Assembly: GCA_965205405.1 (NCBI GenBank)
Contig: OZ242169.1
Span: 2,480,091-2,544,090 of the forward strand
Direction of reading: 5' to 3'
DNA from: Gammaproteobacteria bacterium
GTDB taxonomy: Bacteria > Pseudomonadota > Gammaproteobacteria > Eutrophobiales > Eutrophobiaceae
Length of the DNA: 64,000 nt
Shown: piece by piece, positions 26,300-64,000 of the stretch
Layout: each line of letters starts with the position of its first letter
Position numbering within the stretch: position 1 is the first letter of the stretch
The notes under the pieces: generated by a model
Told to the model about the DNA's origin: nothing
Seen by the model: the letters and a program-made list of their open reading frames with translations, nothing else
Database searches by the model: none
Made by a program: the position numbers and the translations under genes

Positions 26300-26382
26300 A
26301 TACTTGGGGTCAGAGTAAAAATACAGTCACTCGTGAACGACCCCGGCATGCTGTTGAGTATTTTTACTCTGACCCCAAATAT
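26300..26382. repeat. Family-A hairpin repeat copy 2 (one arm mismatch), in the xseA/guaB divergent promoter region
   Basis: Arms ATACTTGGGGTCAGAGTAAAAATAC / GTATTTTTACTCTGACCCCAAATAT around a 33-bp unique spacer. Confidence 0.8.
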
Positions 26383-26396
26383 CTATAGCGCCGCCC

Positions 26397-43130: not shown

Positions 43131-43310
43131 CGTCATGCTTTTCGTCCGGCGCCGATTCCCCCGGGACCGATGTCTGTTTCGCCTTGCCCCCGGAGGTTTA
43201 TATACCTACTGATTCAGGTAGTCTTTTCTTAAAATAGAAACTCACCCCCTACTCAAGAAACTTCCAAACTACTTTTTGCAGTAATTCAACAGGGGTCGTT
43301 CATCCCGTAT

Positions 43311-43330
43311 CCTTTTATCTAGATAAAAGG
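43311..43330. promoter_or_regulatory. Perfect 20-bp palindrome CCTTTTATCTAGATAAAAGG about 70 bp upstream of the hydantoinase-like gene; candidate operator
   Basis: Exact dyad symmetry seen in the sequence, in the LuxR-regulator / hydantoinase-like intergenic region. Confidence 0.45.
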
Positions 43331-43401
43331 TTTCTTTATGAAGCCGCACGGTTACCTGAGAAGAAGAACCGGAAGATGCGATATTGAAGCGGAGTAAATA
43401 A

Positions 43402-44964
43402 ATGCGACTTGGTGTGGATGTCGGAGGTACAAATACTGATGCCGTCTTGATGGATGGCGCACTGGTACAAAGCTGGCATAAAAGTTTCACTACGGAAGAC
43501 ATCAGCACGGGGATATTTTCGGCCATCAGGAGTGTTCTGACAAAAGCCGATATATCCGCCGATAGCATCGAAGGTGTGATGATCGGGACAACTCATTTTG
43601 CCAACGCAATCATAGCGCGGGAGGGATTGGAAAATGTCGGCATCATCAGGATTGCGTTGCCTGCTACTCGTGGTTTACCGCCACTGACTGATTGGCCCGA
43701 TGATTTGAAAGTGCTTGTAGGCGGCCATGCCTATCTGATCCGGGGAGGCTATCAATTTGATGGGCGCTTGAATAGCAAGCTTGACGAAGCCGGGTTGTGT
43801 GATGCCGTTCATGACATTAAAAAGCGAAGGTTGAGATCAGTGGCAATATCTTCACTATTCTCTCCTGTTAACAGTGATATGGAGTTTCGTGCTGAGGCAA
43901 TAATAAAAAATGAGTTGCCTGACGTATCAGTCACTTTGTCTCATCGAATCGGCAGACTTGGTCTGCTTGAACGTGAAAACGCAACCATCATGAATGCCAG
44001 CCTGACGGGTCTCTCCCGGAAAGTGGTCAATTCAATTCGAACAGCCTTGCTTGATCTGAATATTACCGCCCCATTTTACATAAGCCAGAACGACGGCACT
44101 TTAATGGACGCGGAGGCTGTGGAGAAATATCCGGTACTAACCATCTTATCCGGCCCGACTAACAGTATGCGCGGCGCGGCATATTTGTCGGGCCAGAAAA
44201 ATGCAGTAGTAGCGGATATCGGTGGGACCACCACTGAAATAGGCATGCTGGTAAATGGATTCCCCAGGGAATCTTCGTTAACCGTCGATGTGGGCAAGGT
44301 ACGCACCAACTTTCGTATGCCGGATATTCTTGTACTCGGGTTGGGCGGCGGCAGCCTGGTCAGAAACACCATGCCTGTTAGGGTAGGTCCGGATTCTGTC
44401 GGTTATCGGATAACCAGAGACGCCCTTGTCTTCGGTGGTAATGAATTGACTGCAACTGATATAGCAGTCGCAGCCGGCCATACATTAATCGGTAATCCCG
44501 AATATGTTTCAGGACTGGAAAAAGGGTTTGTCAATGCAGCCATAAAGGAAATAAGACTTGTGGTCGAAACCGGTATTGACAGGATCAAAACATCTCCCGA
44601 ACCAATTCCACTGGTATTGGTAGGAGGAGGTTCTGTTTTGGCGCCGCGCAAGTTATCAGGAGTATCTGAAATTATTATTCCTGAGCATGCGCCCGTTGCC
44701 AATGCGGTTGGAGCGTCAATTGCGCAAATTGGTGGAGAGATAGAGCACGTCTATCTTTACTCACAGCTTGGCCGCGAAGAAGCCTTATCACAAGCGCGTT
44801 CAGGTGCGATTCAAAATGCAATAAGCATGGGAGCGGACCCTTCAACTACAAACGTTGTGGACTTGGAAGAAATACCGCTTGCCTATGTGCCCGGAGGCGC
44901 TGTCAAGGTACGCGCGAAAGCGACCGGGATACTTAATCTGGTAAATCCTGATAGACCAGTATAA
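43402..44964 (+). CDS. Hydantoinase-A/oxoprolinase-family (ASKHA-fold) protein, HyuA-like, 520 aa
   Basis: N-terminal MRLGVDVGGTNTDAVLMDG, typical of the Hydant_A_N domain. Size and Gly-rich motifs (GGGS, GPTNS) fit the short HyuA-like proteins that pair with DUF917. Confidence 0.65.
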   Translation: MRLGVDVGGTNTDAVLMDGALVQSWHKSFTTEDISTGIFSAIRSVLTKADISADSIEGVMIGTTHFANAIIAREGLENVGIIRIALPATRGLPPLTDWPDDLKVLVGGHAYLIRGGYQFDGRLNSKLDEAGLCDAVHDIKKRRLRSVAISSLFSPVNSDMEFRAEAIIKNELPDVSVTLSHRIGRLGLLERENATIMNASLTGLSRKVVNSIRTALLDLNITAPFYISQNDGTLMDAEAVEKYPVLTILSGPTNSMRGAAYLSGQKNAVVADIGGTTTEIGMLVNGFPRESSLTVDVGKVRTNFRMPDILVLGLGGGSLVRNTMPVRVGPDSVGYRITRDALVFGGNELTATDIAVAAGHTLIGNPEYVSGLEKGFVNAAIKEIRLVVETGIDRIKTSPEPIPLVLVGGGSVLAPRKLSGVSEIIIPEHAPVANAVGASIAQIGGEIEHVYLYSQLGREEALSQARSGAIQNAISMGADPSTTNVVDLEEIPLAYVPGGAVKVRAKATGILNLVNPDRPV

Positions 44965-44982
44965 ACACTTAGGAGATGTGAA

Positions 44983-47094
44983 ATGAAGATGACTAAGATA
45001 ATTCAACCTTTAAGCACTCTGTTGATTTCTTCAGTTCTGTTTACTGCTTCACTCGGGACTCAGTATTTATTTGCGGCTGATGGCGTTGATGTAACTGCCC
45101 TGGAAGAAATAGTGGTAATAGCACGTAAACGGCAAGAAAACCTGCAGGAGGTCCCGGAAGCTATAACGGCCTTCAGCGAACGCAGGCTGGAACTGGCCAA
45201 AGTAGAGAATTTACGTGATTTCGTAGACCTGACGCCGAACCTGATGATACGTGAAACTTTCCGCTCAAATGAGAGTTTTCTTACCCTGCGCGGTCTGTCA
45301 AGTGCGCAGGGAGGGTTACCACCGGTGAGTTTTATTGTGGATGGTGTGCAGTTGGGTTCCAATGATTTTATAAACCAGGATATTCTGGACGTGGAACGGA
45401 TTGAGATACTGAGAGGCCCACAAGGCGCGCTTTATGGACAAGGCGCGATAGCAGGCGCTATTGTAGTAACGACAAAAGCGCCGAGTAACGACCCAGAATT
45501 CCATATAAAGGGCTCCTATGGCAAGGGTGACAGCTATCGGGTGGCAGTTTCCGGGTCTGCGCCGATTGTCGATGACCAACTGTTTTTGCGTATCTCGGGC
45601 TATTACCGTGACAGCGATGGCCTCATCGATAACATACGCGGTGAAGATATAGATTTCAGCGAGGAAGGTTCCATCCGAGCGCGTCTGCAATATGAAGGAG
45701 ACAACCTGCGCGCCAGTCTGCGCGGGTCCTATACGGAAGGTGATGGGAATTGTTGTATGCAGGACCGCTTGCCCAGAGACGCCAACCGACAGATTTCGGC
45801 GGGCGTGGATATTGACGATGTGGATAACCCTGGACCAAGTAGTGATCTTTTAGGCACCAGTGGTACCAGTTTTCGTGATGTATCACTGAAGCTGGATTAC
45901 GATCTGGCCAATTTCACCTTTACCTCCATAACGGGTTACGCGGAAGTGCGCCAGTCTGTTTTTGGGGATGCCGATTTTGCGCCGGTACCATTTGTCAAAC
46001 AGGATCTGGGTTTCAATACTGACGTATTCAATCAGGAAATACGCCTGGCATCGAGTGATGACAGCCGTTTACAATGGATTGTTGGCGGGTTTTACCAGGA
46101 CCGCCAGGAAAGACAACCGGTTTTTGTCGGGGCGGTGACACCGGGGGCCGGCCTGCCTGTTCCGGATGTCATTTTAGATCTTGATAACGAAATCAACAGT
46201 GAATCATGGGCAATCTTTGGACAGGTAAGCTATTACCTTACCGATAAACTGGAGGGTTTGTTTGCCTTACGCTATGACGAAGATGATCAGGATACGGTTG
46301 ATAAAAATAATCCACCCACGTTCAAGGAAGCCTCATTTGATGAATTGCAACCGAAAGCGCAATTATCCTACCGCTGGACCGATGACGTACTGACTTTCTT
46401 CAGTTATTCAACCGGGTTCAGAACAGGGGGGTTTACGCAAAACAGCAAGTTTGGTAACGAAACGACGGATAATTTCGAGCTTGGCTTCAAGGGAACCTTC
46501 CTGGATAGACGTCTGATCGTAAATGCCTCTGTATTTCACGTTGATTATGCCAATCAACAATTATCGTTTGTTGTGTTCGACAATAATATAGCCCGGCGAG
46601 GGGTAGTGAATATACCTGCAACTGATATTGATGGTCTGGAACTGGAAATTCAGGCATTACCGTTTGATGGCCTGAATGTATCTATTGGTGTCGGAATTTC
46701 CGATTCGGTCATAAAAGAGATCACCTCGTTGGATGCTGCGCTCGGTGACGTTTCTGGCGCATCTGGTAATCGGTCACCTTTTGTTCCATCTTTCACCTTT
46801 AATGGGTCCCTGACATATACGTATCCGATATATGACCAAATTGAACTGGTGCTTCACACCGACTACCGGCGCAGGGGTAATTACTACAGCGACCTCAATA
46901 ATGAGATTCAAACTGCTACCAGGGATTTCATCGATGGAAGAATAGCGCTGGAGGCCCGAAATTGGTCTTTGGCGTTATGGGGCAGGAATTTGACCGACAG
47001 CCGGCATGCCACGCGCGTATCAGCGACGGGCTCTGCGTTGCGCAACCAGAACCAGCCACGGTCTTACGGGGTTGAACTCAGTTACCGTTTTTGA
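44983..47094 (+). CDS. TonB-dependent receptor
   Basis: 703 aa. Signal peptide, plug (EEIVVIARKRQENLQEVPEAITA), C-terminal ...ELSYRF. Confidence 0.85.
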   Translation: MKMTKIIQPLSTLLISSVLFTASLGTQYLFAADGVDVTALEEIVVIARKRQENLQEVPEAITAFSERRLELAKVENLRDFVDLTPNLMIRETFRSNESFLTLRGLSSAQGGLPPVSFIVDGVQLGSNDFINQDILDVERIEILRGPQGALYGQGAIAGAIVVTTKAPSNDPEFHIKGSYGKGDSYRVAVSGSAPIVDDQLFLRISGYYRDSDGLIDNIRGEDIDFSEEGSIRARLQYEGDNLRASLRGSYTEGDGNCCMQDRLPRDANRQISAGVDIDDVDNPGPSSDLLGTSGTSFRDVSLKLDYDLANFTFTSITGYAEVRQSVFGDADFAPVPFVKQDLGFNTDVFNQEIRLASSDDSRLQWIVGGFYQDRQERQPVFVGAVTPGAGLPVPDVILDLDNEINSESWAIFGQVSYYLTDKLEGLFALRYDEDDQDTVDKNNPPTFKEASFDELQPKAQLSYRWTDDVLTFFSYSTGFRTGGFTQNSKFGNETTDNFELGFKGTFLDRRLIVNASVFHVDYANQQLSFVVFDNNIARRGVVNIPATDIDGLELEIQALPFDGLNVSIGVGISDSVIKEITSLDAALGDVSGASGNRSPFVPSFTFNGSLTYTYPIYDQIELVLHTDYRRRGNYYSDLNNEIQTATRDFIDGRIALEARNWSLALWGRNLTDSRHATRVSATGSALRNQNQPRSYGVELSYRF

Positions 47095-47116
47095 TATGAC
47101 TCTTCCGTTGTTTTGT

Positions 47117-47148
47117 GGGCTGATCCTCCTGGATCAGCTTTCTTTTTA
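47117..47148 (+). terminator. Rho-independent terminator after the TonB-dependent receptor gene
   Basis: GCTGATCC-TCCT-GGATCAGC is a perfect 8-bp stem, followed by TTTCTTTTTAT. Confidence 0.7.
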
Positions 47149-47266
47149 TGTTTTATTTATGAAAGTTATTACGCTTTGCGATCCGGTTATCGCCCGTTTG
47201 GCAATCGGTAATTTGAGTTACCCTATTATTCGGATGCCAATTTAATAAATACAGAACAATAGTCAA

Positions 47267-48562
47267 ATGTCCCGTTTGCGAACATTGACACAGGACTACA
47301 ACAGGGTACCGGTTCCTGATGAAAAGACTGTGAGCGCCTGGCACATCGCCTTGATTAAAATAGGTATTGTCATTGCTCTTCCCGCTTTTTTTACTGGCGC
47401 TGAAATCGGGGTAGCTATGGGCCTGGTGGATGCTTGTCTGGTCATAATCGCAGCTGCGCTTATCCTGGCGTTGCTTGCTGCGTTGACCGGTACAGTAGGA
47501 GCGAGTTCACGTTTGTCAACATCAATGATTCTACAATTTTCCTTCGGAATACATGGCGCAAAATTCGTTAATTTCATACTTGCCACTACTTTGCTGGGTT
47601 GGTTTGGAGTGACAACCGCCTTATTCGGGCATACATTAAATGATCTTGTCATTTCCACTTTAGATATCCGGTTAGTACCGACGTTATATATGTTTCTGGG
47701 CGGATTATTGATGATTGTGACGACAGTTTTCGGTTTCAAAGCCCTGCAAAAACTCTCCAATTTTGTGGTTCCGTTATTACTCATCGGAATTGTTGTCGTG
47801 TCTTATATATCCACTCAACAAGGTGAATTCTATCCACTGATGTTAACAACCGGTGATGGCAGTTTATCTATCGGCCTTGGTATCTCAGCATTGGTAGGAG
47901 GAATGGTAGTAGGGGTCACTATTTTTCCTGATCTGACCCGTTATGCCCGTAGTTCTGTTCACGGGCGAGCCGCAGCAGGATTAAGTTATGGATTAGGGGT
48001 TCCTTTTGTACTCATCACGGTTGCTATCCCGAGTATTGTCACAGGCGAAAAGGATCTATTGCTGATCATGCTGTCTTTGGGCTTGGGGATTACCTCATTA
48101 TTGGTGCTTATCATCACTGCGTGGACAACCAATGCAGGCAATTTATATTCGTCTTCTCTGGTTTTGGCAACGATATTCCAGGCAGTAGAAAAATGGAAAA
48201 TCTGTATTGCGGCGGGACTGATCGGAACTGTCTTTGCCGTATCAGGTATCACTGAATATTTTCTATCTTTCCTGATCCTGCTCGGGGTCTGTATTCCGCC
48301 CATAGTAGGGATTTATTTGGCCGATTTTTATTTCATCAGGAATAAACAGTATGATTTATTGAAACTGAAACAGGTCCCGGCTATCAATATTGAGGCATTT
48401 ATCGCCTGGTTACTTGGTATCAGCGTTGCGTCAATGACCTCAAGGGATATTATTTCTCTCACGACAATTCCTTCCTGCGACGCAGTTTTGACAGCTTTTT
48501 CTGTCTATATCCTGCAAAAAAAATTTTCTTTCGGGAGCCCGTGGCGCCTTTACAGGAAGTAA
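47267..48562 (+). CDS. NCS1-family nucleobase-type permease, CodB (cytosine permease)-like
   Basis: 431 aa, about 12 TM segments. Colinear resemblance to CodB (SFGIHGAKF ... LLGWFGVTTALFG). Confidence 0.75.
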   Translation: MSRLRTLTQDYNRVPVPDEKTVSAWHIALIKIGIVIALPAFFTGAEIGVAMGLVDACLVIIAAALILALLAALTGTVGASSRLSTSMILQFSFGIHGAKFVNFILATTLLGWFGVTTALFGHTLNDLVISTLDIRLVPTLYMFLGGLLMIVTTVFGFKALQKLSNFVVPLLLIGIVVVSYISTQQGEFYPLMLTTGDGSLSIGLGISALVGGMVVGVTIFPDLTRYARSSVHGRAAAGLSYGLGVPFVLITVAIPSIVTGEKDLLLIMLSLGLGITSLLVLIITAWTTNAGNLYSSSLVLATIFQAVEKWKICIAAGLIGTVFAVSGITEYFLSFLILLGVCIPPIVGIYLADFYFIRNKQYDLLKLKQVPAINIEAFIAWLLGISVASMTSRDIISLTTIPSCDAVLTAFSVYILQKKFSFGSPWRLYRK

Positions 48563-48592
48563 TATCTGGTGTGATTTATTTATAACAAGTAT

Positions 48593-49681
48593 TTGAATAT
48601 TGTGAAGATTTCATCTGAAGATGTTGAAGATATTGCACTCGGCGCATCATTGCTCGGTACGGGTGGCGGGGGTGACCCCTATATAGGACGCCTGATAACC
48701 CAGTCAGCCCTGTCAGAATACGGCCCTCCAACAGTTTTAGACATGGATGAGCTGGATGATGATGCTGTAGTTTATTCGATAGCAGGTTATGGCGCCCCTA
48801 CGGTCCAGATAGAAAAGCTGATTAATGGTGATGAAGTTGAATTCGCATTAACTAAACTCGAAGATTTCACAGGACATAAAGCCGATGCTTTATTCCCTGC
48901 TGAAATCGGCGGTGGCAATTCACTACTTCCTGTCATGCTGGCGGCTCGTCGCGGGATTTCTGTAATCAACGGTGACGGTATGGGCCGCGCTTTTCCTGAA
49001 TTACAGATGAACTGCTTGAGTATAATGGGAATCAAAGCCACACCCCTGGTCGTAGTCGATGAGCATCTGAATTACGTAATTATTGAAGCCGGCGATGATA
49101 AAATCGCTGAAGATTTAACCCGTTCCCTGGCCATAAGAATGGGGTTACGAGTGTTTATTGCGTGTTTTCCTATGACAGGGCGGGATGTAAAGAAAGCTGC
49201 AATACCCGGGACATTGGGGATAGCGCTTGAGATTGGCCGCACTCTCCGGGAAGGACGCAGAACAGGTGATGTAATAACCCGTCTGTTTAATTATCTTACC
49301 TCATCGAATTATTACAACAAACCCCAGGTACTTTTTATCGGCAAAATAGTGGATGTGTATCGGGAAACTTCCCAGGGTTTTTCCAGTGGTTCATGTAAAT
49401 TAGTGGATTTAAATGACACTGGCAGGACTGCAGTCATTCGCTTCCAGAATGAAAATCTGGTAGTGAAAGTTGCTGACAAGACCGCGGCCATTGTTCCCGA
49501 TCTGATTTGTATTTTAGACAGTGAGACCGGGGAACCAATCTTGACGCCTAACCTCAGATATGGGCAGAGAGTCATAGTGATTGGGCTGAATGCGCCACCT
49601 CAGCTGCGTACTTCAGATGCGTTGTCGATATTCGGTCCGCAGTGTTTCGGAATTGACGAACCGTTTATACCGTTACCTTAA
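48593..49681 (+). CDS. DUF917-family protein (Pfam PF06032-type; usual partner of HyuA-like hydantoinase-family proteins)
   Basis: 362 aa. TTG/GTG start region. N-terminus ...SSEDVEDIALGASLLGTGGGGDPYIGRL, characteristic of DUF917. Confidence 0.65.
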   Translation: MNIVKISSEDVEDIALGASLLGTGGGGDPYIGRLITQSALSEYGPPTVLDMDELDDDAVVYSIAGYGAPTVQIEKLINGDEVEFALTKLEDFTGHKADALFPAEIGGGNSLLPVMLAARRGISVINGDGMGRAFPELQMNCLSIMGIKATPLVVVDEHLNYVIIEAGDDKIAEDLTRSLAIRMGLRVFIACFPMTGRDVKKAAIPGTLGIALEIGRTLREGRRTGDVITRLFNYLTSSNYYNKPQVLFIGKIVDVYRETSQGFSSGSCKLVDLNDTGRTAVIRFQNENLVVKVADKTAAIVPDLICILDSETGEPILTPNLRYGQRVIVIGLNAPPQLRTSDALSIFGPQCFGIDEPFIPLP

Positions 49682-50808: not shown

Positions 50809-50893
50809 CTTCCGTTGGAAATTTGGGGTCAGAGTAAAAATATGGTCAACTTGGTAGGTGTTGCCGGTTTATTCGTGAGTATTTTTACTCTGA
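50809..50893. repeat. Family-A hairpin repeat copy 3, between the convergent PQQ-dehydrogenase and MoaD-like genes
   Basis: Arms AAATTTGGGGTCAGAGTAAAAATAT / GTATTTTTACTCTGACCCCAAATAT around a 35-bp unique spacer. Followed by the family-B half-site AAATCTGTCCCC at 50906-50917. Confidence 0.8.
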
Positions 50894-50925
50894 CCCCAAA
50901 TATCCAAATCTGTCCCCGCCCGGCA

Positions 50926-51189
50926 CTATCCCCCGCCGATAGCGGGGACGAAAAAGACCTCGTTGTTTTCTTCCAGGCGTTGCAGGGGCCCCAGGTGGCT
51001 GATTTGTCCGTTGACTGCAACGGCAATACCGGGTTTTAACCTGTCACCGTCCATGAGCGCATCTTTTAATCCGGGATAGCTCTCATCCAGCGCGACGACC
51101 AGCCTCCTGACGGTGCGGCCTTCCATCTCGACGGTTTCCTTGCCGCCGGTATATGTCTGCATGGCTTTTGGGATCCAGACCGTCGGCAT
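50926..51189 (-). CDS. MoaD/ThiS-family ubiquitin-like sulfur-carrier-type protein ending in Gly-Gly
   Basis: About 87 aa from MPTVWIPKAMQTYTGG ... VNGQ ... EVFFVPAIGGG. The beta-grasp MoaD pattern and C-terminal GG match. Its start overlaps the stop of the Mo-hydroxylase large subunit by about 8 nt. Confidence 0.6.
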   Translation of the reverse strand: MPTVWIPKAMQTYTGGKETVEMEGRTVRRLVVALDESYPGLKDALMDGDRLKPGIAVAVNGQISHLGPLQRLEENNEVFFVPAIGGG

Positions 51190-51196
51190 AACGTCA

Positions 51197-53482
51197 TCAG
51201 GCGGCTTTGGCGGGTTTAGCGGCTTTGATGGCCGCACAGACCTTGTGGGGCGCCATCGGCATGGAGTTCATCCGTACGCCGACTGCGTCATGGATGGCGT
51301 TGGCGATGGCCGCAGGCGGCGGGGCGATGGAAATTTCACCGCAACCGCGCACGCCGAAAGGATGGGCGGGATTGGGCGATTCCAGGATCACAGTTTCCAG
51401 CATCGGCACATCCAGCGAGGTAGGCAGACGGTAGTCAAGCAGACTGGCATTTTTCAGGTGTCCTTCTTCATCGTAGAAATACTCTTCATTTAAAGCCATG
51501 CCTATCCCCTGTACCGCGGCGCCCTGCATCTGGCCTTCCACGTAATCCGGATGGACGGCCTTGCCCACGTCCTGGAATATCGTATACCGGAGAATGTCAA
51601 CCTTGCCGGTCTCGGGGTCCACTTCTACGTCCACCAGGTGTGCTGCAGAGTTTGGAATAAAGCTCTGGGGGCTCCCGGTCTTGTGGTAGCTGATAGGGCC
51701 GCCGGTCTCAAACATTCGCGCCGCCAGTTCATTAAATGTCAGGGTCTGTCCTGGTTCTGCCTTGTTACTGAACACACCTTGGTCGACGCTCACCTGGTCG
51801 GCATCGGTCTCCCACAGCAGGGCGGCCCGTTCACACATTTGCCTGAGTATCTCCTGCGCTACCTCACAGACGACTGCACCGGTGCCGTAGGTGGTCCGAC
51901 TGCCTACCGAAGGCAGTGAAAAACCGATGGACTGGGTGTCGGAGACAAGCGGGGACACCTGTTCAACGCCTATGCCCAGCATCTCCGCGGCCTGCATGGC
52001 CAGCGAGATCCGGGTGCCGCTCAAGTCGGGGCTGGCCGTGGTCATTGTGACGGAGCCATCCGGGTTGACCTGAAGGCGCGCGCTGGAGGTTTCGCCCAGA
52101 TTGAACCACAGGCTGTAGGCAAGGCCTCGTCCCTGGTTCGGCCCGTCCAGAGGCGCCTGGTAATGGGGGTGCGCCCTGACTGTGTCCATCAGTTTTTCCG
52201 TGTCTATGGGCGCCAGCGGGAATCCCGGCACCAGCCGGTCTCCGGTCCTGGTAAGATTTTGCATGCGGAAATCGATGGGGTCCATGTCCAGTTCAAAAGC
52301 CAGCTCATCTATCATCTGCTCCACCGCAAACAGGGCCTGGGGCGCGCCCGGGGCGCGATAGGGACGCATGGTGGGTTTGTTTACGATGACATCGAAGCCG
52401 TTTATCAGGATATTGGGTATGTTATAGCGGGACGTGGAAGACAGGATGCCGAGAAACAGGGGGCCACCGGCATAAGCGCCTGCTTCGTAGGCCATGTGCA
52501 GGTCGGCCGCCGTGATGGTGCCGTCCTGTTTAACGCCGAATTTCAGTTTGATATAAGTGCCGGAACTCGGCCCGGTTGCGCGGAAAACCTCATCACGGCG
52601 CATGGCGATCTTGACCGGGCACTGGGACTTTTTCGAGAGCATGGCTGCGACCGGGTCGATATAAACGCGCTCTTTCCCGCCAAAGCCACCGCCAATCTCC
52701 AGCGGTACGACGTTAACATTACTCATGGGCACCTGGATGATATCCGCCAGGTGATCGCGCAAACCAAACTGCCCCTGGGTCGCGGTCCACACGGTCACAT
52801 AGTCATTGTTATCCCAGTTTACCGTGGTGACGTGGCTTTCAATGTAACCCTGGTGAATGGTCTCCGCCGTGTATTCCCTCTCCAGGACGAGGTCGGCCTC
52901 GGTAAAGCCCTGTTCGATATCGCCATTGCCGAGTTGCAGGCGGGTGGCATTGGGTAGAAATTTCTCCGTGGGCGCGATAAAGCTCCCCGGGTGGTAATTT
53001 TCATGGATGACCGGGGCATCATCGGCCATGGCCGCGCGCACGTTCATGACCGGCGCCAACAGTTCATAGTCCACTTCAATCAGGTTGACGGCTTGTTCTG
53101 CGACGTGGGGGCTGTCTGCCGCTACCGCCGCCAGGGCGTGACCGTCGTAGAGAACCTTGTCTTTCGCCATGCAGTTCTCCGACATCTCGCGCATGTTGAT
53201 CATCCCGGCCATGCCCTGGCTGACCATTTCGTGTATAACCGGAGGGAAATCAGCGCCGGTCACGACTGCGCGCACACCGGGCAGGGCCTGCGCTGCGCGG
53301 GTGTCGATGGACTTTATACGCGCATGAGCATGGGGACTGCGAAGAATTTTCCCGTGCAGCATATTGGGCGGATGAAAATCATCGGCAAACAGAGCGCGTC
53401 CTGTTACCTTGTCCAATCCATCCGGGCGCATCGGTGTGGTACCGATGACGTTAAAATTGTTGTTCACAACTGCGCTGTTCAT
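51197..53482 (-). CDS. Molybdopterin-binding large subunit of a xanthine-dehydrogenase/CoxL-family hydroxylase
   Basis: About 762 aa from the ATG at 53482 (RBS GGAGG). N-terminus MNSAVVNNNFNVIGTTPMRPDGLDKVTGRALFADD ... KILRSPHAHARI. Aldehyde oxidase/XDH a/b-hammerhead and Mo-binding domains. Confidence 0.85.
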   Translation of the reverse strand: MNSAVVNNNFNVIGTTPMRPDGLDKVTGRALFADDFHPPNMLHGKILRSPHAHARIKSIDTRAAQALPGVRAVVTGADFPPVIHEMVSQGMAGMINMREMSENCMAKDKVLYDGHALAAVAADSPHVAEQAVNLIEVDYELLAPVMNVRAAMADDAPVIHENYHPGSFIAPTEKFLPNATRLQLGNGDIEQGFTEADLVLEREYTAETIHQGYIESHVTTVNWDNNDYVTVWTATQGQFGLRDHLADIIQVPMSNVNVVPLEIGGGFGGKERVYIDPVAAMLSKKSQCPVKIAMRRDEVFRATGPSSGTYIKLKFGVKQDGTITAADLHMAYEAGAYAGGPLFLGILSSTSRYNIPNILINGFDVIVNKPTMRPYRAPGAPQALFAVEQMIDELAFELDMDPIDFRMQNLTRTGDRLVPGFPLAPIDTEKLMDTVRAHPHYQAPLDGPNQGRGLAYSLWFNLGETSSARLQVNPDGSVTMTTASPDLSGTRISLAMQAAEMLGIGVEQVSPLVSDTQSIGFSLPSVGSRTTYGTGAVVCEVAQEILRQMCERAALLWETDADQVSVDQGVFSNKAEPGQTLTFNELAARMFETGGPISYHKTGSPQSFIPNSAAHLVDVEVDPETGKVDILRYTIFQDVGKAVHPDYVEGQMQGAAVQGIGMALNEEYFYDEEGHLKNASLLDYRLPTSLDVPMLETVILESPNPAHPFGVRGCGEISIAPPPAAIANAIHDAVGVRMNSMPMAPHKVCAAIKAAKPAKAA

Positions 53483-53484
53483 TT

Positions 53485-53967
53485 TTATGCCTCCGTCATG
53501 GTGTCTGCCGCTTTCAGCACGGAACGCACCAGCTTGTCGTAACCGGTACAGCGGCACAGGTTCCCCGCCAGCCAGTGGCGCACCTGCTGCTCATCCGGCC
53601 GGGGATTTTTATCCAGCAGTGCCTTTGCCGATACCAGGAAACCCGGCGTACAGATACCGCATTGCATTCCGGTTTCTTCCAGGAAAGCCTGTTGCAGAGG
53701 GTGTAATTCAGCGCCCGTTGCCAGTCCCTCTATGGTTTCGATGCTGCTGCCCTCCGCTTCAACGGCCAGCATACAGCAGGCATCCAGTAATACGCCGTCA
53801 ACGATAACGCTGCAAGCGCCGCAGTTGCCGTCGTTGCAACCTTCCTTTGTGCCGGTGAGATAGAGGATATCCCGTAGCGCCTCCAGCAGGCTTTGCCGGG
53901 GTTCGCACAGGAAATCTTTAGCCTCGCCGTTGATCGTTGCCGTGATACGGGATTTGTTACTCATCAT
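53485..53967 (-). CDS. [2Fe-2S]-binding small subunit (CoxS-type)
   Basis: About 160 aa from MMSNKSRITATINGE. Plant-type ferredoxin cluster CNDGNCGACSV plus a second cluster CGICTPG...CRCTGY. Confidence 0.85.
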   Translation of the reverse strand: MMSNKSRITATINGEAKDFLCEPRQSLLEALRDILYLTGTKEGCNDGNCGACSVIVDGVLLDACCMLAVEAEGSSIETIEGLATGAELHPLQQAFLEETGMQCGICTPGFLVSAKALLDKNPRPDEQQVRHWLAGNLCRCTGYDKLVRSVLKAADTMTEA

Positions 53968-54839
53968 TCCTCTCCCCTGGCGCGGGCGATCGCGCACCGT
54001 AATGCCCTTGTTGTCAGTACTTCAACCAGTTGTTTTCGATGTTCTATCGTGCCGCGCATGTCGTTTATCGGCGTGGATGCATCCCGGGCAATTTTGGCGG
54101 CGTCGCTTATCGACGCATCATTTACAGGTTTGCCGCTGAGCGCAGCGCCGGCCGCTTCCACGAACAGGGGCGTCGGCGCCACGGCGCCTATGGCTATCCG
54201 AGCAGTCTTGAAGGTTGCGCCGCTGTCATCCAGGTCGACCCGGGCCGCGGCATTCGCCACGGCGATATCCATTTCATTGCGTGGGATAAAACGCAGGAAC
54301 GCGGCGCCCGAGTTTGCCGGCGGCGCAGGGATGGACAGGGAAACCAGTATTTCATCAGGGGCTAGTGAGGTCCGGCCGGGTCCCGTACAGATTTCTTCCA
54401 CCGGCACATCACGTTCACCCCGGGCGCTGATGATGTGGGCGATTGCGCCGTAGACGATCAACGGGGGAACGGTGTCGGCGCTGGGGGCGGCATTGCACAG
54501 GTTGCCGCCGAATGTCGCCCGCCCCTGGATCTGGATCCCGCCGATCAAGGTCGCAGCGTCTGTCAAAGCCGGAAATCTTTCGGCTATTTCCGGGTGCTCC
54601 CAGATTGTCCGGCAACTGACCGCGGCGCCGATGGTCAGACGATCCGCATCCAGCTGTACGCGGGTGAGTTCCGGGATTTTTTTTGCGTCGATGATGAAAT
54701 CGGGAGACTTGCGGCCGTTGCGCATGAATATCAGCAGGTCCGTTCCTCCTGCGAGAAGCTGTGCCGAACCTGCGTGCTCGGCCATCAGTACGGCCGCCTC
54801 TTCAAGTCCACGCGGCGCCAGGTATTGGAAGTCTTTCAT
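53964..54839 (-). CDS. FAD-binding medium subunit (CoxM-type)
   Basis: 291 aa. MKDFQYLAPRGLEEAAVLMAEHAGSAQLLAGGTDLL, the FAD_binding_5 pattern. Confidence 0.8.
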   Translation of the reverse strand: MKDFQYLAPRGLEEAAVLMAEHAGSAQLLAGGTDLLIFMRNGRKSPDFIIDAKKIPELTRVQLDADRLTIGAAVSCRTIWEHPEIAERFPALTDAATLIGGIQIQGRATFGGNLCNAAPSADTVPPLIVYGAIAHIISARGERDVPVEEICTGPGRTSLAPDEILVSLSIPAPPANSGAAFLRFIPRNEMDIAVANAAARVDLDDSGATFKTARIAIGAVAPTPLFVEAAGAALSGKPVNDASISDAAKIARDASTPINDMRGTIEHRKQLVEVLTTRALRCAIARARGEE

Positions 54840-54853
54840 GGGTAAGTTTCTTG

Positions 54854-55936
54854 TTATGTGTATTTGATGCGCTCGACGGTCATATTATCATCGATAATCC
54901 TGCCGTTTTCTATGATGGCCCGGCCATCCAGTTCCATGGTGCAATCCCGCATGGGTACGTCGTAGTGCCCGCGGGTTGTGCGTTTGCCCCCGCCCTGGTT
55001 ATTGGGGCCGGTCGAGAACAGGAAGTTGCCGGGAAAGGTGCGGGCCGCGGCCCGGCTGCGCTCCGGCTCATCGCCGTTAAGGGCGATGCCGTACCACAGG
55101 GCCTGCGGGTTCAGGCCCCAACCGAGGTGGGAAACCGCATACGGGTCCCTGTCATCTGCGCCGGTACGATTATCATCCAGCCAATCCCGCATGAGTTTGG
55201 CATCGAGTCCGCCTTCCACTTTGTCGACAAAACCGGCGCGGATCGTCAGCTTGACCTCATCCTGGATGTACCGGCAATAAGGCAGGATTACGATGTCCCC
55301 CGGCTGAAAGACTACCGTGCCGTTGGCGCTGCCTTCATTGGGGAAGGTGTGGACGTGACCGCCTCCCCAGTGGTCAAACCGCCCCGGCGCGTCGGCATAG
55401 CCGTATTGACTCATCACCGGATATTCTCCGCACTCGTAGCTCAGGTCAGTACCGGCTTCACTGGTAACGTGTATTTTTTGGGTGTTTGCCAGCAGGGCGT
55501 CGGCATAGAGTACGGCTTCCTTCAAACCCGGCGGCGCCATTAGCTGCTCCAGGTCGTCCGGAGAGTCAATGATCATCAATACCCGGGTTCCGGCATCCCT
55601 GATTTCTTTCAACCAACTGGTGAACAAGGGTACGTGTAAGGCTACAATCAAGTCAGCGGCCCTGGCCGCTTCCAAGGTTCCCTTGCACTGTCCTACGGTG
55701 GGAACGCCGACCTTGGTCCAGGAAGGAATGGAGTTGACACACATTTCATAAACGTCGGCGCCAAGGTCTTCAGCAGCGGCGAATACCGCCTCCACGTATT
55801 CACGACGGGAGGCAAGATCGGTAAGTAACATCACGGTCTCGCCTTGTTGCACTTTGCAAAGTTCTAATTGTTTTTTATACAGCATACCCAGCTTGGCTGG
55901 GTTTAATTCCTGTACGCGGGCGATTGCGGGTAACAT
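54854..55936 (-). CDS. NicX/Hpo-like protein: 2,5-dihydroxypyridine 5,6-dioxygenase family (aminopeptidase-T/M29-like fold)
   Basis: 360 aa. The motifs YGYADAPGRFDHWGGGH, SHLGWGL and GNFLFSTGPNNQGGGKR match my recollection of P. putida NicX (YGYADEPGRWDHW, HIGWGL, GNFLFSTGPN..GGKR). First gene of the operon that continues into the CoxMSL-type genes. Confidence 0.6.
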   Translation of the reverse strand: MLPAIARVQELNPAKLGMLYKKQLELCKVQQGETVMLLTDLASRREYVEAVFAAAEDLGADVYEMCVNSIPSWTKVGVPTVGQCKGTLEAARAADLIVALHVPLFTSWLKEIRDAGTRVLMIIDSPDDLEQLMAPPGLKEAVLYADALLANTQKIHVTSEAGTDLSYECGEYPVMSQYGYADAPGRFDHWGGGHVHTFPNEGSANGTVVFQPGDIVILPYCRYIQDEVKLTIRAGFVDKVEGGLDAKLMRDWLDDNRTGADDRDPYAVSHLGWGLNPQALWYGIALNGDEPERSRAAARTFPGNFLFSTGPNNQGGGKRTTRGHYDVPMRDCTMELDGRAIIENGRIIDDNMTVERIKYT

Positions 55937-56048
55937 GTAAATACTCCTCCAGAGTTATTTGACATGATTGAATGACTATGCCGTTTTGTCAAGAAATCAA
56001 TGGGGTCAGACTCGATTGATTTAGTTCATTAGATTCCTGCTTTCGCAT

Positions 56049-60544: not shown

Positions 60545-60593
60545 TTGCCATTCTACATGGCAGAATTTATCCTGTTTACCTGAATAACCATCG

Positions 60594-60707
60594 ATATTTG
60601 GGGTCAGAGTAAAAATACTTCGATATTTGGGGTCAGAGTAAAAATACGTCTAATCCGGTAGATTGTGTTGCTGTACTATTAAGTATTTTTACTCTGACCC
60701 CAAATAT
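60594..60707. repeat. Family-A hairpin repeat copy 4, with a tandemly duplicated left arm (29-bp period)
   Basis: Left arms at 60594-60618 and 60623-60647, 35-bp unique spacer, right arm at 60683-60707. Flanked on both sides (3 bp away) by the direct repeat TGAATAACCA (60581-60590 and 60711-60720). Confidence 0.85.
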
Positions 60708-60741
60708 CTCTGAATAACCAGCGGGGTAAGGAGGAAACACA

Positions 60742-61626
60742 GTGGCATTAACCAGCGTCGAATCATTTCACAGCCCAACGGATATCCCTACCGTGGTGCA
60801 ACTGCTGCAGCGGCATGAGGACAGCGCCTTGATCATTGCCGGCGGCACTTTTCTGCACGGACTGGCTTCCCGGGGACTGCTTACGGGTATTGAGGCCCTG
60901 ATAGATATACAGAACCTGGGGCTGGATGACGTCAGCGTCGGCAACGATAACGTAGTGATCGGGGCTACTACCCGGTTGGCGCAACTGGAGGCAAATGCGG
61001 CGATACGGTCGGAAGCCTGGCTGGGCGCGGTAAAAGACGCCGTCACCTATCCACCGGTGCAGATCATGAATTCCGCGACGGTCGGCGGTTCCGTTGCCTC
61101 GGCTTGTCCCCTGTTTGATTTGCCGACCAGTTTCCTGGCATTGGACGGCGTGGTACAGGCTCACGGACCTGAGGGCAGCCGGGATATCCCTCTGGAGACA
61201 TTTTTTGCCGGCCTGTTTGAAAACAGCCTTGCTCCGGCTGAATTTGTCACGGCGATCAGCCTGCCGCGAGCGCCGTCGAACAGCGCCAGCGCGTTCATCA
61301 AGCTGGAAACCAACGCCAATGACCTGGCTATCGTGAATGTCGCAGTGGCATTGACACTGAAGAGTTCCGGCTTATGCAGCCAGGCCAGGGTGTTTGTCGG
61401 CGGAGGAACCGGTGAAACCCCGGTAAGAGCCGGATCGGCGGAAGAACTGCTTACCGGCGCCCGCCTGGATGAAGATGTGATCAGCGCTGCGGCTGCCGCA
61501 GCACAAACGGACGTGGACCCCATCTCCGACCACCGGGCATCGAAGGCGTATCGCTCGGCTATGGTCAAGGTGCTGACGGAGAAGGCCTTACGCAAGGCAA
61601 TAGCCAGGTTTACAGACGCAGGTTAA
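60742..61626 (+). CDS. FAD-binding medium subunit (CoxM-type) of a second Mo-hydroxylase
   Basis: 294 aa. ...DSALIIAGGTFLHG..., the FAD_binding_5 pattern. Paralog of the 53964-54839 protein. Confidence 0.8.
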   Translation: MALTSVESFHSPTDIPTVVQLLQRHEDSALIIAGGTFLHGLASRGLLTGIEALIDIQNLGLDDVSVGNDNVVIGATTRLAQLEANAAIRSEAWLGAVKDAVTYPPVQIMNSATVGGSVASACPLFDLPTSFLALDGVVQAHGPEGSRDIPLETFFAGLFENSLAPAEFVTAISLPRAPSNSASAFIKLETNANDLAIVNVAVALTLKSSGLCSQARVFVGGGTGETPVRAGSAEELLTGARLDEDVISAAAAAAQTDVDPISDHRASKAYRSAMVKVLTEKALRKAIARFTDAG

Positions 61627-61639
61627 CGGGAGAGACTGG

Positions 61640-62101
61640 ATGAAGCAGGTGATTCGGCTTGAGGTAAATAATGAGGTACATGAAATTGCGGTACACCCGT
61701 ATAGCAGTCTGTTGCAGACCTTGCGGGAAACGCTGGGATTGAACGGAGCCAAGCGCGGCTGTGATTCCGGCGGCTGCGGCTGTTGCACCGTCCTGATTGA
61801 TGGTAAAGCCGCCTATTCCTGCATGACCATGGCCATGCAGGTCGGAGCTCGGAAAGTGACTACCGTGGAGGGGCTGGGTGATGGCGCCGGCCTGGACCCC
61901 GTACAGCAGGCCTTTATCGATGCTGACGCGGTGCAGTGCGGTTACTGCACCTGCGGCATTATGATGGCCGCGAAACAGTTGCTGGCCGAGAACCCGCACC
62001 CTGACGAAGAGGCGATCCGTAAGGGAATATCCGGAAATCTGTGCCGCTGTACCGGTTACCAGAAAATTGTTGAGGCCGTGCAGATGGCGGCTGCGCGTTG
62101 A
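61640..62101 (+). CDS. [2Fe-2S]-binding small subunit (CoxS-type) of the second Mo-hydroxylase
   Basis: 153 aa. CDSGGCGCCTV and CGYCTCG...CRCTGY clusters. Confidence 0.85.
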   Translation: MKQVIRLEVNNEVHEIAVHPYSSLLQTLRETLGLNGAKRGCDSGGCGCCTVLIDGKAAYSCMTMAMQVGARKVTTVEGLGDGAGLDPVQQAFIDADAVQCGYCTCGIMMAAKQLLAENPHPDEEAIRKGISGNLCRCTGYQKIVEAVQMAAAR

Positions 62102-62115
62102 TGAATACAACAAGG

Positions 62116-62140
62116 GGACAGATTTGAAATCTGTCCCCGA
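62116..62140. repeat. Family-B 25-bp palindrome GGGGACAGATTT-G-AAATCTGTCCCC in the 52-bp spacer between the small- and large-subunit cistrons
   Basis: Perfect 12-bp arms. Identical arms to 26397-26421. Confidence 0.6.
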
Positions 62141-62153
62141 AGGGCATAACTAT

Positions 62154-64000
62154 GACACAGTTGAATGTTATCGGTAACAGCGTCGTCCGGCCGGACGCTT
62201 ATGACAAGGTCACGGGCGGCAAACACTATACGGTGAACTATAGCCTGCCCGGCATGTTGCACGGGAAAATGCTGCGCAGTCCCTATCCCCACGCGCGCAT
62301 AACCCGTATTGACACCAGTGAAGCCGCAAGATTGCCGGGGGTGAAGGCAGTGATCACGCCGGCGGACGTGCCGCAGAATTTTTTTACCCCCGTGTATTTT
62401 GTCCCTGCCCATGCCAAGAGCATGGTGCAGGATTTTGTCGTGATGAGCGACCGGGTGCGCTGGGCCGGTCAGCCCGTGGCGGCTGTCGCCGCGCTTACCC
62501 CGGAGATCGCAGAAGCTGCGCTGCAACTCATCGACGTGGAATATGAGGAACTGCCGGCCGTGTTTGATCCGGAACAGGCCATGCAGGACGGCGCGCCGCA
62601 GATCCACGACCATGCGCCGAATAATATTGCCAAGGCGCCGTCATTTAATTTTGGAGACCTGGAAGCCGGGTTTGCCGAGGCCGACCATATTTTTGAGGGC
62701 GTATACCAGACCCAGAGGGTACATACCTGTTACATGGAACCCCGGGTCTGCGTGGTGGATACTGAAACGGACGGCAGGATTACCGTCCATTCATCCATGC
62801 AGCATACTTTTGGCCTCAGGGAGAAAATGGCCGTTGCCCTGGGTATTCCCGAGAGCAGGGTAAACGTGGTCAAACCGGCTTATATCGGCGGTGGTTTCGG
62901 CGGTAAGCTGGATATCGGGCATCTTGAGCCGGTCGCGGCATTGTTGAGCCGCAAGGCGAGACGGCCGGTACGAATAGAACATACCCGCGGGGAGGACTTT
63001 ATCACGACTACCCGCAACCCGATCAAGGTGTTTCTCAAGACCGGCGTAAAGAACGACGGCAGCTATACGGCCCGTTACATCAAGAGTATTCTGGATGCAG
63101 GCGCTCACGCCACCCACGGTGCCGAGGTCATCATGGTGCATGGCCTGTACGGGACGTTCTTTCCATGGAAATGCCCGAACCAGACCTGGGAAGGATTCAC
63201 CGTCTATACCAATAACATCATCGGTGGCGGGTACCGCGGCTATGGCGCGCCCCAGGGCTGTTTCGCGGTGGAATCCCAGAATGATGAGATCTGTGAAAAG
63301 CTTGGCCTTGATCCTATCGAATTTCGTTCCCGTAACACCTGGAAGGAAGGCGACCCCCACCCCGTGTTGCAAGGTCATAAATTGAACAGCTATCGTCTGG
63401 ATGACTGCCTGAAACAGGGCGCCGAGCGCATCGGCTTCGACCGGCGCCGTCCCGCCGGAGCGGATGAAGGCAGGATAAAACGCGGTATCGGGTTTGCCTG
63501 TCATCCGCTCTGGGTGAGTGGCTGCCTGGGTTTCCCGGACATCTATGAACACTCGGGGGCGACGGTGAAACTGAATCGGGACGGGACTGCCGACGTGGTG
63601 TCGTCCTGTGTTGACCTTGGATCCGGCCAGATCACCATGTTGACCCAGGTTGTGGCGGAGGAACTGGGCTTATCGTCTGAAGCCGTCAAGATTGTTTATG
63701 CCGATACGGATACCGCGCCGTTTGATGCCCCCACTCACGCCAGCCGCGCTACCTACTCGGCAGGTCTGGGAGTCCAGGCAGCTGCAGTTGCGGTAAAGAA
63801 TCGCCTGTTTCAGGCGGCCGCCGCCATCATGGAGGCGAACCCCGAGGACCTATATCTTGAAGACGGTCAAATCCTGGTTAAAGGCGCGCCGGACTCCGGT
63901 GTAGCCATGACGGAAATCATCGCCCGGGCCGAATCACCGTTTATACAGATGACCGATACCGGTCCGCAGCCTACCAGCATCGCGGAAAAAGGCACTATCA
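62154..64000 (+). CDS. Molybdopterin-binding large subunit (CoxL/XDH family) of the second Mo-hydroxylase; partial, runs off the right edge
   Basis: ATG at 62154. MTQLNVIGNSVVRPDAYDKVTGGKHYTVNYSLPGMLHGKMLRSPYPHARI parallels the N-terminus of the 51197-53482 protein. The frame stays open to 64000. Confidence 0.8.

Follow-up and report, generated by a model that had tools for sequence, protein, structure and literature searches.

We find that the last gene of a five-gene operon in an uncultured gammaproteobacterium, which encodes a small beta-grasp protein ending in Gly-Gly (GG), stands in a conserved pair with the molybdenum (Mo) subunit gene of a xanthine dehydrogenase (XDH)-family hydroxylase, and that this pair recurs in at least five bacterial phyla. 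The operon occupies positions 50926-55936 on the minus strand of the window, by which we mean the whole stretch of 64,000 nucleotides (nt) analysed here (contig OZ242169.1 of assembly GCA_965205405.1, positions 2,480,091 to 2,544,090), and encodes, in order, a NicX-like dioxygenase, the FAD, [2Fe-2S] and Mo subunits of the hydroxylase, and the ThiS/MoaD-like small protein. The isolate names of related metagenome-assembled genomes (MAGs) suggest that the host lives in symbiosis with sponges or corals. We propose, with a probability of about one half, that the small protein is a dedicated thiocarboxylate sulfur carrier that would serve the maturation of the cofactor of the hydroxylase encoded beside it.

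A conserved pair of Mo-subunit gene and small gene

Homologues of the small protein were gathered in three independent ways, namely a word-based search, a complete HMMER search of 1.8 billion representatives, which gave 758 matches at E<=1e-3, and pattern scans of genomes (26 loci) and metagenomes (565 relatives, from which 80 loci were kept). Loci were chosen by likeness to the small protein alone, and XDH-family genes were located in them by tblastn with the proteins of the window; gene positions in metagenome loci accordingly derive from tblastn and not from curated gene calls. Among 121 loci with a family member, 105 offer at least 300 nt of upstream sequence and form the informative set. 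An XDH-family Mo subunit lies directly upstream of the small gene, on the same strand, in 92 of these 105 loci. A [2Fe-2S] subunit takes this place in 3 (from Verrucomicrobia), and 10 show neither, including one in which a 2.6-kb insertion parts the Mo subunit from the small gene (L020, 7423-10001) and one that has lost the whole module. Since the selection relied on resemblance to the small protein, and related organisms supply many of the loci, a count made after clustering at 80% small-protein identity is the safer one, and here 34 of 40 clusters possess the Mo-subunit pairing. The distance between the Mo-subunit stop and the start of the small gene has a mode and a median of 6 nt, and the small gene is probably translationally coupled to that of the Mo subunit.

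The pair is seen in Gammaproteobacteria, Alphaproteobacteria, Acidobacteriota and Chloroflexota, and it stays constant while the flanking genes change from locus to locus. Reverse look-ups starting from Mo subunits 61-71% identical to that of the window all returned the order FAD-FeS-MoL-ThiS (FAD, [2Fe-2S] and Mo subunits followed by the small gene), set among unrelated neighbours. In counts limited to loci with enough upstream sequence, the layout of the window (NicX-FAD-FeS-MoL-ThiS) occurs at 17 loci, all belonging to one gammaproteobacterial MAG lineage that includes the window itself, and layouts without NicX comprise 17 loci with FAD-FeS-MoL-ThiS and 23 with MoL-ThiS. The Mo subunit and the small gene are constant across layouts, and NicX is a lineage-specific addition. 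A preliminary description of this DNA, made from its letters alone, had remarked on a MoaD/ThiS-like gene accompanying a Mo hydroxylase, which is not part of the described nic, pic or spm clusters; that pairing is real, and far wider than a single operon could reveal. The same description placed the small gene within a NicX/nicotinate-type pathway, a view that gives way to membership of the hydroxylase cassette, given 17 and 23 NicX-less cassettes as against 17 with NicX.

Several layouts deserve mention. Marine Acidobacteria possess the order LigB-formamidase-FAD-FeS-MoL-ThiS, with a 4-nt overlap, Chloroflexota possess the MoL-ThiS arrangement, and plasmids of cultured Mesorhizobium and Rhizobium carry the medium, small and large XDH subunits (M-S-L) followed by a gene annotated as "MoaD/ThiS family protein". 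On plasmid pMspAR07a of Mesorhizobium sp. AR07 (L123; NZ_CP080529.1 63337-77567), M-S-L is followed by a MoaD/ThiS protein of 81 amino acids (aa), the annotated start of which overlaps the Mo-subunit gene by a single base, and genes for Glp/MoeA, the sulfurtransferase FdhD and MobA precede the cassette; Rhizobium sp. 32-5/1 (L125) has the same cassette. The Verrucomicrobia loci (L028-L030, 8500-10900) contain an FAD subunit, a [2Fe-2S] subunit, the ThiS-like gene and a cupredoxin, with the small gene trailing the [2Fe-2S] subunit.

The Mo subunit and the small gene co-vary strongly (Mantel r=0.915), yet we do not count this as evidence of interaction, because such a value is expected for any co-inherited gene pair. 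One locus (L036) was considered as a candidate for replacement of the small gene, given that the C-terminus of its Mo subunit is 92% identical and its ThiS-like protein 53% identical. However, this candidate was rejected, as no part of the Mo subunit is more strongly conserved than this C-terminal stretch and the discordance is therefore only mild. The pair appears to be an old, mobile unit and a fixed partnership of this clade of Mo enzymes.

Organisation of the operon

The features of the operon and its edges are as follows, in order of transcription.

55964-55992, minus strand: sigma-70-like promoter match, TTGACA-17-AATCAT, 10/12, a consensus match only and the best for the operon
54854-55936, minus strand: NicX-family mononuclear Fe(II) ring-cleavage dioxygenase, 360 aa (PDB 7cn3)
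53964-54839, minus strand: FAD-binding (medium) subunit, 291 aa (Pfam FAD_binding_5 2.8e-43, CO_deh_flav_C 1.7e-23)
53485-53967, minus strand: [2Fe-2S] (small) subunit, 160 aa (Pfam Fer2_2 6e-31, Fer2 8e-7)
51197-53482, minus strand: molybdopterin-binding large (Mo) subunit, 761 aa (Pfam Ald_Xan_dh_C, MoCoBD_1, MoCoBD_2)
50926-51189, minus strand: CysO-like ThiS/MoaD-family beta-grasp protein, 87 aa, C-terminal Gly-Gly, putative sulfur carrier (Pfam ThiS)
50818-50905, no strand assigned: palindromic repeat with 25-nt arms and a variable core, in the spacer where the ThiS-like and GSDH-like genes converge

The five open reading frames (ORFs) are tightly packed, with intergenic spacings, in gene order, of 14, -4, 2 and 7 nt, and the gene order and identities given in the preliminary description are borne out by ORF coordinates, Pfam and PDB matches. 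The promoter match sits 28 nt upstream of the NicX-like ATG, inside a 216-nt gap that follows a DUF547 gene. The ATG of the [2Fe-2S] subunit overlaps the stop of the FAD subunit (ATGA), and the large subunit is counted here from ATG 53482, although its open frame extends to 53557. An overlap had also been claimed between the small-gene start and the large-subunit stop; what we measure is a 7-nt gap, between the TGA at 51199-51197 and the ATG at 51189. The sole start option that would overlap is an upstream GTG at 51237, which is unconserved. We favour ATG 51189 because the N-terminus that it yields, MPTVWIP, is kept in homologues, with P7 unchanged throughout 62 diverse sequences.

The small protein is CysO-like

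The small protein matches Pfam ThiS (PF02597) over residues 6-87 with 43 bits (cut-off 22.5; E=6.9e-11), and ends in PAIGGG followed by the stop. The GG is invariant across 20 close and 62 diverse homologues, and stands directly before the stop in 82 loci. An AlphaFold (AF2) model based on a 20-sequence alignment is a confident beta-grasp (pLDDT 91.4), in agreement with the GG-ending beta-grasp protein that had been read from the sequence beforehand. Foldseek searches with this model are led by CysO (4n6e_B and 3dwg_C, TM-score 0.89), and also return a Thermus MoaD-related protein (0.80-0.82), SAMP1 (0.70-0.78), Urm1 (0.66-0.74), Escherichia coli MoaD (0.69) and ThiS (about 0.46). Sequence comparison gives a similar picture, with phmmer reaching CysO from the single sequence at 1.1e-7 and 2.1e-5, and a profile of 62 family sequences reaching CysO at E=1e-18 and 2e-16, SAMP3 at 8e-8, SAMP1 at 1e-5, ThiS at 0.06 and E. 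coli MoaD at 0.59. Scores fall below the NCBIfam cut-offs for MoaD (TIGR01682, 17.5 vs 66.15), archaeal-type MoaD (TIGR01687, 31.9 vs 49.5), SAMP1 (NF041918, 32.7 vs 60) and Urm1-like proteins (NF053661, 27.9 vs 70). We would thus place the protein in the ThiS/MoaD superfamily, on its CysO/SAMP side and outside every named equivalog. Consequently, the earlier label "MoaD/ThiS-like" holds at the level of the superfamily, whereas phmmer, profile and Foldseek agree on a CysO-like rather than a MoaD-like protein.

The NCBI pipeline names the small gene just "MoaD/ThiS family protein", there is no family-specific NCBIfam model, and an exact-sequence look-up of the protein of the window returned no database record. 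A median dN/dS of 0.11 over 22 orthologues (216 pairs) identifies a real gene under strong purifying selection. The protein contains no cysteine and is therefore not an Fe-S protein, which rules out a ferredoxin-like role. Residues beyond the GG are present in about a quarter of loci and in over half of the database representatives listed, some of them only 1-2 residues (R, S, A, AA) and others long tails. In two cases the protein looks fused, with an alpha/beta hydrolase in P0223 and with a membrane protein in P0279. Such extensions and fusions may be pro-forms that need a peptidase, or gene-call artefacts.

An XDH-family hydroxylase

The partner enzyme belongs to the XDH family, with three subunits carrying FAD, two [2Fe-2S] and Mo-cofactor (Moco)-binding domains, and the catalytic Glu/Gln. 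The best PDB match of its Mo subunit is the alpha subunit of 4-hydroxybenzoyl-CoA reductase (1rm6_A, 1.7e-91), followed by CoxL, the ketone dehydrogenase of the nicotine pathway (Kdh) and quinoline oxidoreductase. Every NCBIfam equivalog remains under its cut-off, from the top match, 4-hydroxybenzoyl-CoA reductase alpha (TIGR03194, 443.7 vs 994.55), to CoxL form I (TIGR02416, 293.7 vs 991); likewise, the top NCBIfam match of the FAD subunit, XdhB, lies under cut-off. In alignment with 4-hydroxybenzoyl-CoA reductase, CO dehydrogenase and Kdh, the catalytic Glu (GCGE) and the active-site Gln (TATQ) are retained, and the Cu-binding AYRCSFR loop of CO dehydrogenase is replaced by PYRAPG. This absence of the active-site loop rules out a CO dehydrogenase, and the large subunit, previously assigned to the CoxL family, is nearer to the HcrA/XdhA type. 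We regard the enzyme as an ordinary sulfido-type Mo hydroxylase with CoxMSL-like organisation, but not as a CoxL.

A second XDH-family operon lies on the plus strand of the window at 60742-64000, with an FAD subunit (60742-61626), a [2Fe-2S] subunit (61640-62101) and a large subunit, about 35% identical to the first, that continues past the edge of the window.

A distinct NicX subfamily

The sole genuine PDB relative of the NicX-like protein is Pseudomonas putida NicX (7cn3, E=3e-68, 38% identity). No aminopeptidase is present among its PDB matches, even at E<=1, which rules out affiliation with aminopeptidase T and supports the grouping with NicX made in the preliminary description. The protein had no match in the Pfam copy used, and its orthologues carry the newer PF26233 NicX. 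With residue roles taken from P. putida NicX (PMC7910607), the Fe ligands H265, S302, H318 and D320 are all present, in the protein of the window and in 121/121 subfamily members, and L104, H189, R293 and C76 are also retained. However, the substrate-contact network H105-E177-H189 (plus E308) is kept only at H189, and the remaining positions read F105, Q177 and Q308. Given that the H105F variant of NicX is still active (PMC7910607), these changes would make 2,5-dihydroxypyridine a less likely, yet possible, substrate. The 121 relatives, at >=72% identity, form a distinct subfamily in which F105 and Q177 are invariant and the other change nearly so, and their sources, where named, include Alphaproteobacteria, Burkholderiales, Verrucomicrobiales and Bacteroidota. 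For this subfamily we consider a dihydroxypyridine-type substrate plausible, and the two Glu-to-Gln swaps would suit a more anionic one. Pfam scans of the called ORFs over 64 kb found no family expected of NicC, NicD, NicF or NicE, in keeping with the earlier remark that genes of the 6-hydroxynicotinate-monooxygenase, deformylase, maleamate amidase and maleate isomerase types are lacking.

Proposed role of the small protein

Under our proposal, the three-subunit enzyme would hydroxylate an N-heteroaromatic, pyridine-type substrate beside the ring nitrogen, and the NicX-family Fe(II) dioxygenase would then open the dihydroxylated ring. This pathway half is favoured by the position of the NicX-like gene, 14 nt upstream of the FAD gene, and by its four intact Fe ligands. 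The small protein would stand outside the logic of this pathway, as a partner of the Mo enzyme. An E1-type enzyme encoded elsewhere would adenylate its C-terminal Gly-Gly, a thiocarboxylate would be formed next, and the sulfur would pass to the pyranopterin cofactor of the co-expressed enzyme. In favour of this role stand the CysO-like fold with its invariant GG, the linkage to the Mo subunit across phyla, the retained catalytic Glu and Gln, the AOR-linked MoaD genes discussed below, and one cultured case, the Mesorhizobium plasmid, where Glp/MoeA, FdhD and MobA genes border the cassette. Its destination could be the dithiolene sulfurs, in a MoaD-like role, or the terminal Mo=S ligand. The former is disfavoured because the protein is far from true MoaD and shows no linkage to MoaE. 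The latter appears chemically reasonable, as the sulfido-dependent catalytic residues are kept, but is without precedent; that a CysO-like protein donates the terminal Mo=S, replacing or supplementing the XdhC/cysteine-desulfurase route, is a tentative suggestion, and one that we consider doubtful.

Various observations weigh against this proposal. The family profile reaches E. coli MoaD only at E=0.59, and the nearest relative, CysO, is a carrier for cysteine and thiosugar synthesis. To our knowledge, XDH-family enzymes mature through XdhC together with a cysteine desulfurase, and a thiocarboxylate protein is not known to take part. Some members of the family lack the partner: the loci from Candidatus Moanabacter / Opitutales (L028, L029, L030) have FAD-FeS-ThiS with no Mo subunit within 10 kb; at L013 (10001-10261) the ThiS-like gene is intact (88% identical) while the whole hydroxylase module is gone from the site; and others stand alone or by unrelated genes (L043-L046, between DNA-repair genes, and L041). 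The substrate-contact residues of the NicX-like protein depart from those of NicX (F105, Q177, Q308), and the maleamate-pathway genes (NicD, NicF, NicE) were not found in the 64-kb window.

Partner genes are similarly wanting in the regions covered, which extend to at most 10 kb around the pair and, in the window, to the full 64 kb. Ten annotated locus look-ups revealed no E1 (ThiF/MoeB), MoaE, JAMM or XdhC, none of these recurs in a set of 149 cluster representatives of neighbour ORFs, as judged from the 25 top families out of 170, and Pfam scans of the called ORFs in the window found no ThiF/MoeB, MoaE, MoaA, MoaC or JAMM; a MoeB/E1-like activator, which the preliminary description proposed to look for nearby in the genome, is thus found neither in the window nor in the annotated loci. 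MoaE, MoaA and MoaC are likewise absent from the annotated loci and as a recurrent family among the 149 neighbour ORFs, and an Rfam scan of the window found no family, the Moco riboswitch included. When the Mesorhizobium Glp/MoeA, FdhD and MobA proteins were compared with all loci by tblastn, matches were confined to 1 of about 125, that plasmid itself, and adjacency to Moco genes is therefore not general. As a side observation, nine related marine MoL-ThiS loci (L061, L083, L085, L089, L100, L105, L107, L110, L122) have neighbours that include a persulfide-dioxygenase/rhodanese fusion and a sulfite-oxidase-family Mo enzyme, which could reflect either a link to sulfur metabolism or shared contig ancestry.

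Alternative explanations

Among the alternatives, the one that survives best is that the small protein is a general housekeeping carrier of CysO/MoaD type, acting in cysteine, cofactor or tRNA thiolation, and simply parked behind a Mo gene. CysO is indeed its closest characterised relative, no dedicated E1 or partner gene lies close by, and both the stand-alone members (L043-L046, L041) and the retention of the small gene at L013 after hydroxylase loss would be readily understood. We nevertheless regard this explanation as unlikely, because a housekeeping gene would hardly be found, in 92 of 105 loci and several phyla, some 6 nt after one and the same subunit gene while other neighbours change. 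Moreover, the true CysO orthologues of Burkholderia and Nonomuraea lie away from any Mo-subunit gene, and paralogous XDH-family operons of the same genomes lack the small gene. Examples of the latter are the second operons of L006, L007, L015, L016 and L026, in which tblastn finds no ThiS-like gene beyond that behind the first hydroxylase, and a 67%-identical paralogue in a related genome (P0122).

The terminal GG could alternatively mark a ubiquitin-like (Ubl) modifier, as in SAMP and Urm1, or the protein could be a fourth, structural or chaperone, subunit of the Mo enzyme, an explanation that we judge distinctly improbable. The NCBIfam likeness to SAMP1 and Urm1-like proteins is weak and under cut-off (32.7 vs 60 and 27.9 vs 70), although there is structural likeness to both, and the extension of about a quarter of members past the GG recalls modifier pro-forms. 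Archaeal Ubls are known both to carry sulfur and to conjugate (PMC11323500). Tight translational coupling suggests that the amount of the small protein is matched to that of the Mo subunit, as a subunit would require, yet an invariant terminal GG would be needless in a structural subunit. Furthermore, E1, E2-like and JAMM genes are missing nearby, and no fusion of the small protein to an XDH subunit exists among the homologues listed.

A third possibility, with a poorer chance still, is that the protein donates its thiocarboxylate to a carboxylated heterocycle in concert with an AMP-forming ligase, in the manner of QbsE and PdtH. An AMP-binding ligase is the most recurrent additional neighbour (15 or more loci) and abuts the small gene in L035, where the ligase start shares a base with the small-gene end; TonB-dependent receptors are frequent near the cassettes; and ThiS-like proteins are established in siderophore thioacid pathways (PMC1779556). 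However, no such ligase occurs in the window or at the majority of MoL-ThiS loci, the E1-rhodanese and JAMM genes that accompany QbsE and PdtH are not found, and the Mo subunit is the sole constant partner. CoA-thioester substrates would account equally well for a ligase next to an XDH-family enzyme; among solved structures, 4-hydroxybenzoyl-CoA reductase is closest to the Mo subunit.

Finally, the preliminary description combined the operon with the DUF917/HyuA locus of the window into one pathway for a sulfur-containing heterocycle, for which one may cite the physical closeness of the two blocks, the thiohydantoin desulfurases within the DUF917 family (by NCBIfam names) and hydantoinase genes near two other cassettes, but this idea appears largely refuted by synteny and retains next to no probability, for the reasons given below.

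Other features of the window

The DUF917/HyuA locus is part of a block at 40380-49681 with 44-50% GC (mostly 44-47%), as against 55-58% at 50-64 kb, where the operon lies. The block encodes a LuxR/MalT-type regulator, a HyuA-like protein (43402-44964), a TonB-dependent receptor, an NCS1 permease and a DUF917 protein (48593-49681, S-Me-THD-like), the last of which scores 92 bits against the 450 cut-off of the desulfurase equivalog. It is located on the opposite strand from the operon, beyond a convergent GSDH-like gene. Neither of the two syntenic genomes for which gene calls exist (L001, L005) contains it, and both otherwise keep the order guaBA ... TonB receptor ... GSDH-like, ThiS, MoL, FeS, FAD, NicX. 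Nor do DUF917, NCS1 and HyuA have a tblastn match in the other syntenic genome loci, L006-L030. The block thus looks like an inserted catabolic island and, as an insertion, offers no hint on the substrate of the operon.

The palindromic repeat behind the small gene (50818-50905) folds as RNA with -44 kcal/mol (z=-5.3), and is likely a transcript-end hairpin behind the last gene of the operon. The same intergenic palindrome has four copies in the window (8740-8825, 26299-26384, 50818-50905 and 60593-60709), with arms of about 25 nt, GATATTTGGGGTCAGAGTAAAAATA / TATTTTTACTCTGACCCCAAATATC, around a variable core of about 28-38 nt. Half-sites number 9, against 0 expected by chance. The element is also present in related MAG loci (L001, L003, L004, L007, L014, L017) and has no Rfam match, and its conserved stems with unrelated loops are unusual for a miniature inverted-repeat transposable element.

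Elsewhere in the window, guaA and a biotin carboxylase gene (27962-29535, 32723-34133) are each frameshifted into two ORFs, which makes them either pseudogenes or products of long-read assembly errors; guaA is intact in the related locus L005. A further cluster for aromatic demethylation or oxidation, at 16276-24915, contains three Rieske/VanA-type oxygenases, two major facilitator superfamily (MFS) transporters and a TonB-dependent receptor.

Significance

In sponge symbionts and deep-ocean bacteria, few oxidoreductase families are as strongly expanded as XDH-family enzymes of unknown substrate. A definable subfamily is marked out by a sulfur-carrier gene that keeps its place after the Mo subunit in several phyla. 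Each enzyme of the operon is a new member of a known family, and the linkage of a sulfur carrier to one enzyme, hitherto described for the tungsten aldehyde:ferredoxin oxidoreductase (AOR), would now extend to a large XDH-family clade with a CysO-like protein. Targeted literature searches, with subscription journals outside their scope, found no description of a MoaD or other sulfur carrier with a Mo hydroxylase or CoxL, and the comparative-genomic treatments of Ubl/sulfur-carrier neighbourhoods and Mo utilisation that we consulted (including PMC1779556 and PMC2948915) report no XDH/CoxL linkage.

The pairing implies a maturation step that is missing from XdhC-centred models of Moco sulfuration and insertion. 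If the role in cofactor sulfuration is true, co-expression of the 87-aa protein may be needed for obtaining active recombinant enzymes of this clade; if the protein is the terminal Mo=S donor, it would represent a new and widespread maturation factor for a large, mostly uncharacterised group of Mo hydroxylases from marine and symbiotic bacteria. The cultured rhizobia that carry the cassette on plasmids make the question directly testable. A second lead is the NicX-like subfamily with invariant F105 and Q177, which is spread across many bacterial groups.

Comparison with known systems

With the nic cluster of P. putida KT2440 and the pic, hpd and vpp clusters, the operon would share the logic of Mo-dependent pyridine hydroxylation followed by Fe(II) ring cleavage, and the protein of the window keeps the NicX fold and its four Fe ligands. 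In contrast to the nic cluster, no equivalents of NicC, NicD, NicF and NicE occur in 64 kb, the hydroxylase is of the three-subunit FAD type and not NicAB, and the NicX-like protein (38% identical) belongs to a separate subfamily with F105, Q177 and Q308. We know of no ThiS-like gene in the nic, pic, hpd or vpp clusters.

The XdhC/PaoD/CoxF maturation factors are, like the small gene, accessory genes in the operon of their enzyme, and would share with it the delivery of a sulfurated cofactor if the favoured sulfur-carrier role is right. XdhC binds Moco and is supplied with sulfur by a cysteine desulfurase. These factors have nothing in common with the small protein in fold or mechanism, however, and no XdhC-family gene was seen in the annotated loci here.

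QbsE and PdtH, of the thioquinolobactin and pyridine-2,6-dithiocarboxylate pathways, are likewise ThiS-like GG proteins amid N-heterocyclic carboxylates, an AMP ligase and a TonB receptor. They possess their own E1-rhodanese and JAMM peptidase and no Mo hydroxylase (PMC1779556), whereas the reverse applies here.

CysO of Mycobacterium and Amycolatopsis (3dwg, 4n6e) is closest by sequence and fold, with 90-93 aa vs 87, a common N-terminal motif IPxx(L/M)(R/Q)xxTGG and a C-terminus PA(I/V)xGG. Identity is nevertheless about 27-29% (Foldseek alignments), and CysO orthologues have no Mo-subunit neighbour. The partners of CysO are CysM, Mec+ and MoeZ, or alternatively BexX, and no gene for any of them is linked here; CysM, Mec+ (JAMM) and MoeZ are absent from all loci, where the invariant neighbour is the XDH-family Mo subunit.

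The closest precedent for a role in cofactor maturation is provided by the MoaD genes strictly adjacent to tungsten AOR, which have been proposed as molybdopterin makers for AOR (PMC1779556, PMC2948915), and which include TK1065 next to AOR in Thermococcus kodakarensis (PMC11323500). Differences exist, in that the partner here is of the XDH family (Ald_Xan_dh_C, MoCoBD_1/2) and strict adjacency to AOR is absent, the MoeB, MoaE and MoaA genes that often accompany the AOR pair do not occur near the pair described here, and the small protein is CysO-like and under the cut-off of TIGR01687. In both systems, a single pyranopterin enzyme family has its structural gene associated with a GG-terminal gene of the ThiS/MoaD superfamily; the pair is distributed sporadically over distant phyla like a mobile cluster, lies apart from the main Moco operon, and is proposed to involve supply of the cofactor to that enzyme.

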